Assembly (NCBI RefSeq): GCF_001677475.2
Contig: NZ_CP015229.1
DNA: 64,000 bases
DNA from: Escherichia coli
GTDB taxonomy: Bacteria; Pseudomonadota; Gammaproteobacteria; Enterobacterales; Enterobacteriaceae
Direction: 5' to 3' (one strand)
Position 1 is the stretch's first letter, and the number at the start of each line of letters is the position of its first letter. This document shows positions 26,996 through 35,203 of the stretch, piece by piece. The notes under the pieces are model-generated. The model was not told the DNA's origin and did no database searches. It saw only the letters and a program-made list of their open reading frames with translations. The translations under genes were made by a program, and so were the position numbers.

Positions 26996-27020
26996 AACCC
27001 CGCTTCGGCGGGGTTTTTTG
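26996..27020 (+). terminator. Intrinsic terminator of the tRNA operon
   Basis: ccccgcttcggcgggg hairpin followed by tttttgtttt. Confidence 0.7.
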
Positions 27021-27135
27021 TTTTCTGTGCATTTCGTCACTCTCCCTTCGCAATAAACGCCCGTAATAACTCATTGCCCCACGGTATGATTTCGCCCCTA
27101 ACGTATTGAAGGATGACTTCAGGCAAGGAGCGACC

Positions 27136-28371
27136 ATGCTGCAACAGGTTCCAACGCGTGCTTTTCATGTGATGGCAAAACCGAGCGGTTCCGATTGTAA
27201 TCTGAACTGTGACTACTGTTTTTATCTCGAAAAACAATCCATTTACCGCGAAAAGCCAGTCATGCATATGGACGATGACACGCTGGAAGCGTATGTCCGT
27301 CACTATATCGCTGCCAGCGAAACCCAAAACGAAGTGGCTTTTACCTGGCAGGGTGGCGAACCAACGTTACTCGGGCTGGATTTTTACCGCCGTGCCTTGG
27401 TACTACAGGCGAAATATGGTGCTGGCAGGAAGATAAGTAACAGCTTCCAGACTAACGGCGTTCTGCTTGATGACGAATGGTGTGCATTTCTGGCAGAAAA
27501 TCATTTTCTTGTTGGGTTATCGCTGGATGGTCCGGCTGAGATCCACAATCAATATCGCGTGACCAAAGGCGGCAGACCAACGCATAAGCTGGTGATGCGT
27601 GCCCTGACGCTCCTGCAAAAACATCATGTCGACTATAACGTGCTGGTCTGCGTAAATCGCACCAGCGCGCAGCAACCGTTGCAGGTTTATGATTTTTTGT
27701 GCGATGCGGGAGTCGAATTCATCCAGTTTATTCCGGTGGTCGAGCGCCTGGCTGATGAAACAGCTGCCCGCGATGGACTGAAACTACATGCGCCTGGTGA
27801 TATTCAGGGGGAACTGACGGAATGGTCGGTGCGCCCCGATGAATTTGGTGAATTTCTGGTAGCGATTTTCGACCACTGGATCAAACGCGACGTCGGCAAG
27901 ATTTTCGTGATGAATATCGAATGGGCGTTTGCCAATTTTGTCGGTGCGCCGGGTGCGGTTTGCCATCATCAGCCAACCTGTGGGCGCTCGGTGATTGTTG
28001 AGCACAACGGCGACGTTTACGCCTGCGATCACTATGTTTATCCGCAATATCGACTGGGGAATATGCATCGGCAAACAATTGCAGAAATGATCGATTCCCC
28101 GCAACAGCAGGTGTTTGGTGAAGATAAATTTAAGCAATTACCGGCGCAGTGTCGCAGTTGTAACGTGTTAAAAGCGTGCTGGGGAGGTTGCCCGAAACAC
28201 CGCTTCATGCTCGATGCCAGCGGCAAACCGGGACTGAATTATTTGTGTGCCGGGTATCAGCGTTATTTCCGCCATCTACCGCCATATCTTAAAGCAATGG
28301 CTGATTTGCTGGCGCACGGTCGCCCGGCCAGCGACATTATGCAGGTACATTTGCTGGTGGTGAGTAAGTAG
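27136..28371 (+). CDS. aslB: Anaerobic sulfatase-maturating enzyme (radical SAM)
   Basis: Translation from ATG 27136 MLQQVPTRAFHVMAKPSGSDCNLNCDYCFYLEK..., CxxxCxxC radical-SAM motif. Confidence 0.93.
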   Translation: MLQQVPTRAFHVMAKPSGSDCNLNCDYCFYLEKQSIYREKPVMHMDDDTLEAYVRHYIAASETQNEVAFTWQGGEPTLLGLDFYRRALVLQAKYGAGRKISNSFQTNGVLLDDEWCAFLAENHFLVGLSLDGPAEIHNQYRVTKGGRPTHKLVMRALTLLQKHHVDYNVLVCVNRTSAQQPLQVYDFLCDAGVEFIQFIPVVERLADETAARDGLKLHAPGDIQGELTEWSVRPDEFGEFLVAIFDHWIKRDVGKIFVMNIEWAFANFVGAPGAVCHHQPTCGRSVIVEHNGDVYACDHYVYPQYRLGNMHRQTIAEMIDSPQQQVFGEDKFKQLPAQCRSCNVLKACWGGCPKHRFMLDASGKPGLNYLCAGYQRYFRHLPPYLKAMADLLAHGRPASDIMQVHLLVVSK

Positions 28372-28397
28372 AAATCGGCGGCCGCCTGCGGTTGATT

Positions 28398-28434
28398 GCC
28401 GGATGCGATGCTGACCGCATCTTATCCGGCCTAC
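28398..28434. repeat. REP element (first of a convergent pair)
   Basis: gccggatgcgatgctgaccgcatcttatccggcctac matches the enterobacterial REP palindromic consensus. Confidence 0.7.
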
Positions 28435-28467
28435 AGAACGTTACAATTTATTGAATTTGCAAGGCTT

Positions 28468-28501
28468 GTAGGCCGGATAAGGCGTTCACGCCGCATCCGG
28501 C
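28468..28501. repeat. REP element (inverted copy)
   Basis: gtaggccggataaggcgttcacgccgcatccggc. Confidence 0.7.
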
Positions 28502-28537
28502 AAGGTCAGTGTGGCCCGATGTAGCGATATCGCCGGC

Positions 28538-30193
28538 TTAATCAGATTTAATCTGCGCGCGTGGTGGATATTTTTTCAGGATCTCCATATATGCGTGCAT
28601 TTCGGTCTGTAGCGGTACACCCATCGGAATATGGCGCACGCCGATAGAGTCTCTTTCCTGCGGATCGGTGTACAGGTTAAACACCGACGATCCCGCCGTT
28701 TGCATTACTGTGCCGGTGAACCCACCCTGATACCCGCTCTGGGTATAAGCGTAAGGTTGCTGAATCAGGACGTGATACTTGAACTCATCCATACGCACAG
28801 CAGCGAGTTTACCGTTGAGGAAGTAGTGCTCGGCCTTACGGTTAGACTGACCATTTGTTCCCAGGAAGAAAGAAGCCTGGTCCACACCATCGATAAATGT
28901 GGTTTTCGGCACTAAATTCGCCACTTTCGCTCCAGGATGCCCTGCCAGATCCAGCGCGGTAGGGAAGAGATCTGCCAGATCGACAATACCGTCAGATTTA
29001 CGCGGTTGGATCATGCCTTTCCAGTAAACGAAGGTTGGCACACGAACGCCGCCTTCCCATGTAGAACCTTTCGCACCGCGGAACGGGGTGCGACCGTGCG
29101 GCGGAACTTCGGCTTCCGGACCGTTATCAGAGGTGAACACAATCAGCGTGTTATCAAGCTGACCGTTTTTCTCCAGTGCTTTATACAGATTGGCGAAGAT
29201 TTCGTTCATCTCCACCATGCAGTCGCCGTAAGAGGTGCGCGCCGGAGAGCTACCCGCATATTTCGCATTTGGGTAGTTATCGAAGTGACAGCCGCGAGTG
29301 CCGTAGTAGAGGAAGAAAGGCTTATCGCTCTTCGCCATCTTGTCGAGGAACTTAACGCCATATTCCATCCAGCGTTGATCCAGGTCTTCCATATATTTCG
29401 GCGTAATGTCGGCAATGGCCTCCTGTTCACCGCCGCGCACGGCATGAACGTCATCTTTGCTGAATGGCAGTTTTTGGATGTATTCAGAACGATCCGGGCT
29501 CAGGGCGACTTCCGGGTTGACATGAACATCACGCCATTCGGTATACATATCGGACACCGAGTTAAAGCCGCGGAAATCATCAAAGCCAACGTTCTGCGGC
29601 TGCGACTCTTTGTTTTCCCCCATATGCCATTTCCCGATGGCCTGGGTGACGTAACCCTGATCGTGCAGCAGTTGCGGCAGCGTGGTTAACCCTTGCAGCC
29701 CGCCCGGTTGCCCGTACATTGGCGGCATCAGAATGCCGTGGTGGATGGAGTATTGTCCGGTGAGAATGGTGGCGCGGGTTGGGGAAGAGCTTGGTTGAGA
29801 ATACGCCGAAGTTAAAATCAGCCCCTGGCTGGCAACGGCGTCGATATCTGGTGTAGGGTTACCCACTGCCACGCCGCCGCCGTTAAAGCCGACGTCCATC
29901 CAGCCCACATCATCCAGCAGGAAGATAACCACATTGGGCTTCTTACCGGTTTTTTTCTCAAGTTCTGCCAGCTTGTGCTGGGTTTCTTTATCCTGCGCCG
30001 GATGCTGCATTACTGGCATCATGTTGTCGGCAATAGTGGTCGCCGGTTTAACCAGATACTGGTTTGGGTGATCGTATCCGGAAAAGCCTTTGCGTGCGGT
30101 GGCAGTTGACGGGGTATCTGCTGCGCTGGCCATGAGAGGAAGAGCGGCGGCGACAGCAACAACAAGAAGTTTGGGTGAAAACGAAAATTCCAT
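28538..30193 (-). CDS. aslA: Arylsulfatase-family periplasmic sulfatase
   Basis: 551-aa translation with signal peptide [24 protein letters not shown] and sulfatase core. Confidence 0.93.
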
Positions 30194-30871: not shown

Positions 30872-32068
30872 CTACTGTGGCGGGTTGTTCTGCAACGTTA
30901 ACATCAAACCGTCGCGGCGCATCGCTGCAGCTTCTTCTGGTTTGTGCAGTCTGTCCAGCGCGTCGGCAAGCCATGCGTAATCGTAGGCGTCCGGACGTTG
31001 TTTCAGCGCTGCGCGGAAGGCGAGCGATGCTTCCTGCCATTCTCCGTGCTTCATCAGCGACTGACCCAGTGTGCTCCACAACAGCGGGCGATCGCCGACG
31101 TTTTTGATCTGTTGGCGCAGCACTTTTTCCAGCTGTTCCGGGTTATTGGTTTTCAGACGCGGGATCGGCAGCAGTAGGCGATCGTCATACTGGCGTTTCA
31201 GGCCGTCGATGATAATTTGCTGGGCAGTATCATGATCGTCACATTCAATAAGATGTTCCGCCATTGCCACCTGCAACGCTACCTGATGACGCGTTTTCCG
31301 GCTTTGGTTTTTCCACCAGTTACGCAAACCTTCGCTACCGTTATCGGCACGAGCCTGATCCATCAGGCCAATCCATGCCTGTTGTTCCAGCATTGCACGA
31401 TGTTCTTCATCACCAACATGGGCTTTCGCCATTGATGGGATGATATCCAGCAGCGAACTCCATGCCCCTGTGCGGATATACGCCTGTTCCGCCAGACGTA
31501 ATACTTCCGGATGGCGTGGCGTAACTTCCAGCAGCTTATCCACGCCGTGGCGTGCAGCGTGGTTTTCATTACGGGCCAGTTGCAGACGTACACGGGTGAT
31601 TTCTACCGGAATGGTGTCATTACCGGCCAGCTCCGCTGCGCGTTCCAGATGTTGGTTGGCGCGTGCTTCATCACCACGTTGTTGCGCGGCTTCGGCAGCC
31701 AGTAGATAGTTCACCACCGGTTGTTCAGCGTGATCGGCATTTTTCGCCATCAGCTTTTCAACTTGCTGATAATCGCCTTCCGCCAGTTTCAGCAGCGCCT
31801 GTTCGGTCTGCTTACGGGCACGGCGACGCTTACGTCCGACAAACCACCCACGGGTGTGCGCGCCAGTGCGGAAGATCCGCCGCAGTAGCCACTCAATGGC
31901 AAACAGCACTACCATCGCCAGAATCAAAATAATCGCCAGGCCCGTGACGCTGGTTTCGATATTGTAGTTGTCGGTCTGGATCAGCACATAACCCTGATGA
32001 CCGGCAATCATCGGGCCAACCACGATCCCCGCAATCAGCAACACAAAGAGCAATAACACTTTTAGCAT
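30872..32068 (-). CDS. hemY: Heme biosynthesis-associated TPR membrane protein HemY
   Basis: 398-aa translation MLKVLLLFVLLIAGIVVGPMIAGHQGYVLIQTDNYNIETS... Confidence 0.93.
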   Translation of the reverse strand: MLKVLLLFVLLIAGIVVGPMIAGHQGYVLIQTDNYNIETSVTGLAIILILAMVVLFAIEWLLRRIFRTGAHTRGWFVGRKRRRARKQTEQALLKLAEGDYQQVEKLMAKNADHAEQPVVNYLLAAEAAQQRGDEARANQHLERAAELAGNDTIPVEITRVRLQLARNENHAARHGVDKLLEVTPRHPEVLRLAEQAYIRTGAWSSLLDIIPSMAKAHVGDEEHRAMLEQQAWIGLMDQARADNGSEGLRNWWKNQSRKTRHQVALQVAMAEHLIECDDHDTAQQIIIDGLKRQYDDRLLLPIPRLKTNNPEQLEKVLRQQIKNVGDRPLLWSTLGQSLMKHGEWQEASLAFRAALKQRPDAYDYAWLADALDRLHKPEEAAAMRRDGLMLTLQNNPPQ

Positions 32069-32070
32069 GG

Positions 32071-33288
32071 TTATTCTCCTTGCGGCGCGGCTGCCGGAGT
32101 ATCAGCTTGCGGTGCAGGTGCAGGTGCAGGTGCAGGTGCAGGTGCAGGTGCAGGTGCAGGTTTAGCTTCCGTTGTCCCCGCTGCCGGTTGTGCCAACAGG
32201 TTACGCACGCGAGTCTGCATCAGTTTTTCCAGCATCGCCTGGCTTTGCAGGGTTTCCGGAAGATCCATCGAGATATTTTGCTGGCTTAACTGGTCCACCT
32301 CGTCGAGGAATGCTTTGGTGGTGGCATCATCAGTATCGTAGTAAGCACGTACCCAGGTGGAGACGTTCTCCAGCGCCTGGCGATAAGTCTCTTCCTGATG
32401 ACGCGGTACAGCTTGTGCAGCGACCAGCAGGCGAGAGCGAATATTTTCGCGCAGATAGATATCCTGATTTGGCGCTAACAGCGGTACGGCGGTGTCATCA
32501 CGACGGCGAATCGTAATGAAGTTGTCCATAAAGTTCTGCCAGCTTTTTTGCAGATTGATACGCCATTCGCTGATGGAACTGGAAAGCTCTTCACCGTCGG
32601 AATCCATCGGCGAACCATCGCTGTCATTATCGGCCAGACGCAGGTTATCTACCTGATTTGAAAGCTGATTAAGCTTAAGGATGATGCCGTCATAATCCAC
32701 CTGCGATACTGCAGAAAGGCTGGCGATATCATCGGTAATTGCCCGACGAACGGTAATCAGACTCGGGTCATTCATATCCGCCAGGCTGGCATCTGCACTT
32801 TTCAGCAACGCTGCAGCGGTCGTGACGTCTTGATCGCTCCACAGCTTCCGTCCTGCGAGTTTCACCAGAAAATCGGCCTGAGCCAGCAGCCAGGTTTTAG
32901 CATCGCTGCCGGAAATGGTGGCGACCTTTTGTTGGACTTCATCCAACTGTTTTGCCAGCGTTTCTTGCTGACGATTCGCCTGCTTAAGCTGTGCAGCTTG
33001 TTGCTTAATAATGCCTTCCAGCTCGGCTTTTTGGCTCTCCTGGGCTTTTTGCAATGCCGTCAGTTGGTTAGCCAGGGCATCGCTGGTGGCGGTCTGATTG
33101 ACGGCCTGTTGTTTACCCCAGCCATACAAACCGACGCCCGCCGCCAGAGCAATCGCGATAGCCACCGCGCTGAGAATCAATGCGGTATTGTTCTTACTCT
33201 TTTTTTCTGTTGCGACAGGTTGTGACGTGGTGTCCACGGCCTCCCTGGTCTCTTCAACCACGGCGGAGGTTTTTTCTTGTTCCGTCAT
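32071..33288 (-). CDS. hemX: HemX (uroporphyrinogen-III C-methyltransferase homolog / membrane protein)
   Basis: 405-aa translation; C-terminal (PA)n tract encoded by the hexanucleotide repeat at 32111..32160. Confidence 0.9.
32111..32160. repeat. Tandem hexanucleotide repeat (GGTGCA)x8 inside hemX, encoding a Pro-Ala repeat
   Basis: Read directly: ggtgcaggtgcaggtgcaggtgcaggtgcaggtgcaggtgcaggtgcagg. Confidence 0.95.
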
Positions 33289-33309: not shown

Positions 33310-34050
33310 TTATTGTAATGCCCGTAAAAGCGCATCGTTGTCAGCGTTATCGGCGACCTTAATGTCTTGCCAGCCCAGTTCCCGGGCGAGTTTCGCCAAA
33401 CGCTCACTGACGACCAATAGTCGACAGTGTAGTAACCAGTGCTCACGATACCATTGTGGGATCAGCGACCAGAGTTGCTGCAACATTTCACCGCTGGTAA
33501 CAACGACCGTCGTCACCTCGCGGGATTGCCAGCGCATCGCTTCTTCTGCACCATCGTAATGGATTGCGCATCGTTGATAACATTCACAAAAAGTGACCTC
33601 AGCACCGCGCGCCGTCAGGGTATCCCCAATTAGCTCACGACCGCCATTGCCACGTAATATCAGCGCACGTTTGCCCGCAATATTTTGTAATTCAGGTAAT
33701 TGTAGCAAGACTTCGCTGATTTCCCGATCCTGCGGGTAGAGAATCTTCTGTCCGCTTACGGTATGTAGCGCCAGTGCGGTGGTGCGTCCAATGGCGAAAT
33801 AATCAGGTAGTCGGGGCCATTTACGATCTTGCTGATGCAGCTGTGATTGGGCAAAAGCAACCGCGTGTTGCGAGAGGGCAAACAACAGATCGCTCTCCCC
33901 CAGCGCTGCCAGTTGATCAGCAAGTTGCGGTAATTGTCGACCCGGAGAAAACTCAATCAGCGGAAAATGCCAGGCCACCTGCCCCAGTGTGCGCAGACGG
34001 CTCACTAACTCTTCTCCAGCGGGAGACGGGCGGGTGACCAGGATACTCAT
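33310..34050 (-). CDS. hemD: Uroporphyrinogen-III synthase
   Basis: 246-aa translation [34 protein letters not shown]... Confidence 0.93.
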
Positions 34051-34988
34051 GCCGGGGCGTCTCCGTTATAGACTTCAGCAAGGATCTCGCGCGCGCCGTT
34101 ATTCAGTAGCTCTTCTGCCAGCGAAATCCCCATTTGTTCGGCATCTTGCGGCGCACCGCGGCGTTCACCGCGAATAATCTGCGAACCGTCCGGCGCGCCG
34201 ACCAGCGCACGCAGCCAGATTTCGCCATCAATAAGCTCGGCGTAGCTACCAATTGGCACCTGACATCCGCCTTCGAGACGGGTATTCATGGCGCGTTCTG
34301 CGGTAACGCGCAGTGCAGTTTCGTGGTGATTCAGCGCGGCAAGCAGCTCGCGAGTGCGTGTATCATCAAGGCGGCATTCAATGCCCACCGCACCTTGTCC
34401 TACCGCCGGAAGAGAAATCTCGGGTGGCAACGCGGCGCGAATACGTGACTCCAGACCTAAACGTTTTAGTCCGGCTACGGCAAGAATGATGGCATCGTAT
34501 TCGCCGTTATCCAGTTTGCTCAGGCGAGTGCCGACGTTGCCGCGCAGGGAGCGGATAATCAGATCCGGGCGGCGTTCAGCCAGTTGGCACTGGCGACGTA
34601 AACTGGACGTCCCGACGATACTGCCTGCCGGTAACGCATCCAGACTGTCATAGTTATTGGACACAAAGGCATCGCGAGGATCTTCACGCTCGCAAATAGT
34701 GACCAGCCCCAGACCTTGCGGGAATTCAACCGGCACATCTTTCATTGAATGTACGGCGATATCGGCGCGATTTTCGAGGAGCGCGATTTCCAGCTCTTTA
34801 ACAAATAAGCCTTTTCCGCCTACTTTCGCCAGCGGCGTATCAAGAATCACATCGCCGCGCGTCACCATCGGTACCAATTCAACGACCAGGCCCGGATGGC
34901 TCGCCATCAACTTGTCTTTGACATAGTGTGCCTGCCAGAGTGCAAGTGGGCTTTGGCGTGTGGCAATTCTTAAAACATTGTCTAACAT
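34047..34988 (-). CDS. hemC: Porphobilinogen deaminase (hydroxymethylbilane synthase)
   Basis: Translation [27 protein letters not shown]..., 313 aa from internal Met of track ORF; 4-nt overlap with hemD. Confidence 0.93.
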
Positions 34989-35203
34989 GCTTGTTACCGT
35001 CATTATCATCCGTGGTCCATCCTAACATCCTTGCCAGAGCGATGTCAGTGTTGTGGTGAAACGTAGACGCCTGCGCAAACCGTAAAATGAGGTCTGGCAG
35101 TGGATCCTGACAGGCGTTTCACGCCGTCGTAATAAGGAATTTACAGAGAATAAACGGTGCTACACTTGTATGTAGCGCATCTTTCTTTACGGTCAATCAG
35201 CAA

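Follow-up and report, generated by a model that had tools for sequence, protein, structure and literature searches.

The DNA analysed here carries, near the 3' end of the E. coli hemX gene, an uninterrupted run of GGTGCA hexanucleotides, which raises the question of what kind of locus this is, how freely its length changes between strains, and whether such changes have any consequence for the HemX protein or for the adjoining hemY gene. The answer that is very probably correct, and to which the evidence below points from several sides, is that the array represents the known VNTR locus CVN014, situated in the 3' end of hemX, that its copy number is altered most probably by slippage, and that these alterations stay in frame and are most likely neutral or nearly so.

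In the raw sequence of the window (by which the whole 64 kb stretch under analysis is meant), eight GGTGCA units occupy positions 32111-32158 and are followed by GGT. Tandem Repeats Finder reports the array at 32111-32161 with a period of 6, 8.5 copies, 100% matches, 0 indels, a score of 102 and the unit GGTGCA, and the hemX array is the sole exception in a window where the same program finds no array of more than 2.3 copies elsewhere. The self-match run at a lag of 6 measures 45 nt at the array and 9 at the runner-up elsewhere in the window, while the longest such run over 200 shuffles is 12, and the random expectation for lag-6 runs as long as that of the array is ~5e-23. The GGTGCA array is genuine and far above chance.

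The 405-residue ORF that contains the array matches the Pfam HemX family PF04375 (E = 4e-108, 360.9 bits, cut-off 25.9) over residues 130-363, which correspond to profile positions 2-235 of 236. Read in coding phase, the array consists of eight CCT GCA (Pro-Ala) pairs followed by CCG (Pro), that is, HemX residues 377-393 (window 32110-32160), after which 12 residues remain before the stop codon. The initial annotation had described eight perfect GGTGCA copies at 32111-32160, coordinates that are right to within one base according to Tandem Repeats Finder and the raw sequence, and had placed them in frame in minus-strand hemX as a (PA)n tract close to the C-terminus, on which the ORF and the codon phase agree. 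Its description of the tract as a linker is not supported, however, since residue 363 is the last of the Pfam domain, no folded domain lies beyond it and only 12 residues follow the tract, which thus forms a C-terminal tail that joins no two domains; an inter-domain Pro/Ala linker was rejected for a tract at residues 377-393 of 405, past the domain end. Proline-rich, extended, unstructured or rigid segments that do join two functional domains are found in the (Glu-Pro)/(Lys-Pro) region of TonB and in the Ala-Pro hinge of OmpA. The HemX tract resembles these in being built of alternating proline dipeptides within an envelope protein, but with 12 residues after it, it cannot serve as an inter-domain spacer.

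Features of the hemX-hemY region of the window, in order of position
Feature	Position	Strand	Description	Basis
hemY CDS	30872..32068	-	ATG 2 nt past the hemX stop	ORF list; annotation of homologous regions
CVN014-F site	32026..32049	+	TCCCCGCAATCAGCAAMACAAAGA; inside the 5' end of hemY	Exact match
hemX CDS	32071..33288	-	405 aa + stop	ORF list; Pfam; hemX annotation in all matching E. coli genomes
hemY Shine-Dalgarno	32076..32081	-	AAGGAG, inside the last hemX codons CAA GGA GAA TAA (Q-G-E-stop)	
Adjoining CCG codon	32110-32112	-	Pro393	
VNTR array	32111..32161	+ (hemX on -)	(GGTGCA)x8 + GGT on the + strand; coding strand (CCT GCA)x8 = residues 377-392, (PA)8	Tandem Repeats Finder; sequence; codon phase; chance test
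CVN014-R site	32165..32184	-	GCAGCRGGGACAACGGAAGC	Exact match

The generic E. coli MLVA scheme that includes CVN014 reportedly goes back to Lindstedt et al. 2007 and Lobersli et al. 2012, to whom later papers credit it. Within this scheme (GECM-7/GECM-10), CVN014 is a 6-bp locus, and its primers have been published in full (PMC8143711 Table 1, PMC8261245 Table 2). Both primers map to the window with 0 mismatches, each at a unique site, and converge around the array, where none would be expected by chance; the other primers of the ten-locus scheme have no match in the window. The resulting amplicon is 159 bp long, and since the allele number is defined as (product size - 111)/6, with 111 bp as the share outside the repeat (PMC8143711), it corresponds to (159-111)/6 = 8, an integer that equals the directly counted number of units. 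Judged by this primer mapping, the array in the window is CVN014, carrying allele 8, with no difference from that locus. Searches of the open literature found no published statement that CVN014 sits in hemX, and no paper that names hemX as the host of a tandem repeat, VNTR or MLVA locus, the one apparent match being a Salmonella SNP table; the link between the two therefore rests on the primer mapping of the present analysis.

The array is thereby an already known and in this sense ordinary element, a routine strain-typing marker in use since 2007, and its variability is what makes the locus useful in outbreak tracing. Sized by PCR, CVN014 has been found in all isolates with 2-12 repeats as the most variable locus, and ST131 carries 5 or 6 (PMC5217547 Table 3). 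Nine CVN014 alleles have been recorded within one ST131 collection (PMC3407997 Table 2), although allele numbering is one lower in that study, where ST131 is given as 4 and the ST10 complex as 1, while the (PS-111)/6 formula gives 5 and 2, respectively. The O157:H7 MLVA VNTRs (TR1-TR7 / Vhec / O157-n) are comparable to the hemX array in that they are perfect arrays of short units which change by whole units. Their units, however, are AAATAG, TGGCTC, TATCTT, TGCAAA, AAGGTG, an 18-mer and GACCAC for TR1-TR7, none of which is a rotation of GGTGCA or TGCACC, so the hemX array was rejected as one of the TR1-TR7 loci. In addition, some of the O157 VNTR loci have null alleles, so that certain O157 isolates yield no amplicon there, while the hemX array is part of a core gene shared by all E. 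coli.

To determine how copy number is distributed, a 401-nt query spanning the array was searched against 5,426 complete E. coli genomes, and the hemX-hemY array locus was matched in 5,425 of them. The hemX-hemY junction is unmatched in a single genome, and at least one genome has the locus in two places, one of them on a plasmid. Two systematic samples were then drawn, the first consisting of 60 records evenly spaced along the ranked matches to the 401-nt query, and the second of 60 rank-spaced records matched by a 300-nt query without the array. In the first sample the matched spans are 365-437 nt long and their offset from 401 is always a multiple of 6; in the second they range from 312 to 420 nt, compared with the 300-nt query, in steps of 6. 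Combined, the samples yield 118 alleles with 2-20 units, together with one complex allele that is present in both. The numbers of genomes are 19 with 2 units, 4 with 3, 8 with 4, 19 with 5, 20 with 6, 12 with 7, 15 with 8, 4 with 9, 3 with 10, 5 with 11, 1 with 12, 3 with 13, 3 with 14, 1 with 17 and 1 with 20, and Simpson's D is ~0.90 in the first sample. These frequencies describe systematic samples from a database skewed towards laboratory and clinical clones, and are not a census. The upper end of the range is likewise to be read as a minimum of at least 20 units, because a synthetic 26-unit query aimed at the longest alleles returned up to 18 units, its ranking having tracked flank identity rather than array length.

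One genome per length was fetched over the range of 2-14 units, and each of these alleles proved to be a pure (GGTGCA)n array with identical immediate flanks. The annotated hemX CDS measures 1170+6n nt for n = 2-14, and hemX is intact at each fetched length. The prediction that copy number varies between strains in 6-nt steps without a frameshift is thus borne out by the 118 genomes, and the number of units in hemX, counted across many E. coli genomes, is not identical everywhere. The comparison with K-12 made in the initial annotation also holds, since hemX of C600 is 1182 nt long (393 aa, 2 units) and the HemX encoded in the window is therefore 12 aa longer, so that the estimate of about six extra units turns out to be exact (8 units versus 2). 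The published ubiquity and variability of CVN014 and its ST131 alleles of 5 and 6 agree with the genome counts (5,425/5,426; 2-20 units). What the present analysis adds to the typing literature is the explicit mapping of CVN014 onto the Pro-Ala tail of HemX, the survey of complete genomes, by which the range of alleles now reaches 20 units or more, and the observation that O157:H7 genomes differ among themselves in their long alleles, while the K-12 laboratory derivatives in the samples all keep 2 units.

Variation is not confined to differences between distant lineages. Every K-12 laboratory derivative in the samples has 2 units, as do the other genomes sampled with the same allele, while O157:H7 genomes have 5 and 13-17, and ST131 genomes have either 5 (an O25b:H4 genome) or 6 (O25b:H4-ST131 strain 4993). 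Common flank haplotypes also carry varied alleles, which extend from 4 to 14 units in one haplotype and from 5 to 13 in another. Judged by these sequence comparisons, copy number appears to change fast within lineages, as ST131, O157:H7 and the alleles with a common flank are all varied.

The sole non-pure allele met is that of strain P276M (locus L013, NZ_CP044293.1, ~160-245), hence not all alleles are pure. Its array is interrupted, reading (GGTGCA)4 GGTGGT GCAGGT GCAGCA (GGTGCA)7, and remains in frame (...PAAPAPPAPA...); since the annotation marks hemY of this strain as frameshifted and interrupted by a stop, a sequencing or assembly error is possible for its array as well. The window itself also stands somewhat apart. 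Positions 22000-44000 have a best match of 97.7% among the 5,426 complete E. coli genomes, with the aslA/aslB stretch (27000-30000) at 92.6-95.6% to the best genome and the hem operon at 98-99.6%, and a look-up among ~15 billion proteins found no exact copy of the 405-aa HemX. From these identities, the source strain appears to be without a close relative among the complete E. coli genomes, or may be a Shigella, a group that this genome collection excludes.

The Pro-Ala tail can be followed beyond E. coli. A P/A-rich tail is present across Escherichia and Citrobacter, and a comparison of HemX proteins revealed (PA)2-4 in Citrobacter species and no PA run in Salmonella HemX, while the terminal PQGE is identical in all three genera. 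In Citrobacter sedlakii, the site homologous to the PA tract carries (PAA)1 in a HemX of 394 aa (P0025/P0035), (PAA)2 in one of 397 aa (P0023/P0024) and (PAA)3 in one of 400 aa (P0006/P0007), which, on the evidence of the proteins, would represent an independent length polymorphism in 9-nt steps in the same tail. As to the protein itself, a search of solved structures found none for any HemX relative, and a Pfam search found no methyltransferase domain in HemX; the product name 'uroporphyrinogen-III C-methyltransferase' is a historical suggestion. HemX has been termed poorly characterised in a review (PMC2704936), and gentamicin sensitivity is reduced in a hemX deletion strain (PMC12282077).

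Downstream of the array, the end of hemX is closely interlocked with the start of hemY. The ORFs around hemX match hemY, hemD and hemC, and the order hemC, hemD, hemX, hemY is annotated likewise in homologous E. coli regions. At the junction, window 32066-32085 on the minus strand, the spacing of 2 nt between the hemX stop and the hemY ATG is, by its sequence, an arrangement typical of translational coupling. The hemY Shine-Dalgarno sequence lies downstream of the array at a fixed distance of 29 nt, so that its position is not altered by the number of units. In a folding model of the naked mRNA it is fully paired, which would fit a dependence on upstream translation, as in translational coupling. 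It may also be that PQGE is conserved in HemX because of the constraint imposed by the hemY ribosome-binding site rather than because of the protein.

The mechanism that best accounts for these observations is slipped-strand mispairing during replication, by which units would most probably be gained and lost both between and within lineages, with an instability that presumably rises with array length. Slippage is the accepted and predominant mechanism for VNTR units of up to 6 bp, and 6-bp VNTRs of E. coli O157 change at 4.4e-5 to 1.8e-3 per generation, faster above ~13 units (PMC3777172). The hemX array has the features expected of this type, as its copies are perfect and arranged head to tail and the fetched alleles of 2-14 units differ by whole units only. 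Since a unit is 6 nt long, each change in copy number keeps the hemX frame, and all that would change is how many Pro-Ala dipeptides stand in the C-terminal tail, a short stretch of low complexity located beyond the conserved HemX domain. The variation is probably tolerated because the array does nothing more than lengthen this tail, and the fact that the tail accommodates anything from (PA)2 to (PA)20 suggests that these length changes are in all likelihood neutral or close to it.

The ALTERNATIVES tested were phase variation, hemY regulation through mRNA structure, ssDNA hairpins and tolA-like tuning. Perfect short intragenic repeats are a classic substrate of phase variation, yet the possibility that the array acts as an on/off switch for hemX, or that it is an assembly artefact, can be set at next to nothing: the unit is a multiple of 3, the length steps among the 118 sampled alleles are all multiples of 6 and the annotation gives an intact hemX at all fetched lengths, so that a phase-variable contingency locus is excluded by the in-frame 6-nt unit, and an array that recurs across 5,425 complete genomes of independent origin, and whose length many published studies have determined by PCR, is not an artefact. 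RecA-dependent unequal recombination, rather than slippage, would be an improbable main driver of copy-number change, even though contractions of the tolA repeat depend on RecA (PMC3477136) and long O157 VNTRs often change by several units at once (PMC3777172). The O157:H7 alleles of the hemX array, which lie up to 12 units apart, also speak for recombination; the unit, however, is only 6 nt long and the whole array measures 12-120 nt. RecA normally needs homology that is far longer than this. Moreover, the tolA units are 15-18 bp long and its tract is longer, and slippage is held to be predominant for short-unit VNTRs (PMC3777172). Because TGCA is self-complementary, the array was also folded as ssDNA, and no special structure was found, the predicted hairpins of -9 to -11.5 kcal/mol being no better than those of shuffles (z = -0.75, -1.3); this unremarkable hairpin propensity does not discriminate between slippage and recombination.

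Two further proposals would give the number of units a function. According to the first, it regulates hemY through mRNA structure or translational coupling, a suggestion that gains some plausibility from the position of the Shine-Dalgarno sequence within the last hemX codons, from the 2 nt that separate the genes and from the full pairing of this sequence in the naked mRNA model, which fits a need for upstream translation. It is nevertheless very unlikely, as the modelled accessibility is the same for 0-26 units (0.00 for the Shine-Dalgarno sequence and 0.31 for the start region), the distance from the array stays constant at 29 nt, and the hemX frame is always kept, so that ribosomes reach the same stop codon. 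According to the second, selection acts on how long the Pro-Ala tail is, making it a 'tuning knob' for HemX function or envelope interactions, with lineages keeping their own optima, for which the closest precedent is the tolA repeat (Zhou, Michiels and Aertsen 2012, PMC3477136). Like the hemX array, this repeat lies in frame in a gene for an envelope protein, encodes a low-complexity, Ala-rich segment and varies from 8 to 16 units among E. coli isolates from nature, and its number of units alters how well cells withstand detergent, osmotic stress and phage (PMC3477136). The two differ in that the tolA units are imperfect and 15-18 bp long and those of hemX are pure and 6 bp long, and in that the tolA repeat is placed inside a long helical domain joining two functional domains, whereas the hemX array is placed in a terminal tail. 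RecA-dependent contraction and phenotypes have been demonstrated for tolA (PMC3477136), while the literature searched yielded no phenotype of hemX tract length. The altered gentamicin sensitivity of the hemX deletion strain (PMC12282077) and the retention of a P/A-rich tail in Escherichia and Citrobacter are consistent with tuning. Against it, lengths spread widely within single clones and single flank haplotypes, which resembles drift at a fast-mutating site rather than lineage optima, Salmonella HemX dispenses with the PA run entirely, and the tract lies outside the conserved domain with 12 residues after it. Selected tuning is hence about as improbable as recombination. By analogy with tolA, a marginally smaller chance still may be granted to the more specific idea that tail length is non-neutral and tunes HemX activity or a partnership with HemY in haem and respiratory-chain biogenesis. 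If this were true, the hypermutable array would let E. coli lineages vary traits linked to respiration, aminoglycoside uptake among them, in a fast and reversible way, and if tract length affected HemX, it would be a second envelope protein of E. coli, after the product of tolA, to be tuned by an in-frame repeat. Nothing in the way the lengths vary suggests tuning, and no result obtained here points to it; slippage at a known, in-frame and nearly neutral VNTR remains the preferred reading.

Some HemX database entries are of unusual length, and PA-tract expansion was considered for the very long ones and rejected, as they owe their length to duplications or a frameshift that are unrelated to the tract. 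A protein of 485 aa (P0001, ENA) has an internal tandem duplication of 80 residues in the region before the tail, one of 413 aa from Salmonella Berta (P0061) has a duplication of 24 residues across the transmembrane segment, and in one of 435 aa (P0093, JGI) the tail is frameshifted and read through into hemY; all three may be either assembly errors or real variants. Finally, further upstream in the operon, the mechanically called hemC ORF (34047-35009 on the minus strand) encodes 320 aa, whereas in the homologous region of strain CFSAN061761 hemC is annotated with 942 nt (313 aa); the extra length probably reflects the first in-frame start chosen by the ORF finder. The hemC and hemD genes overlap by 4 nt.
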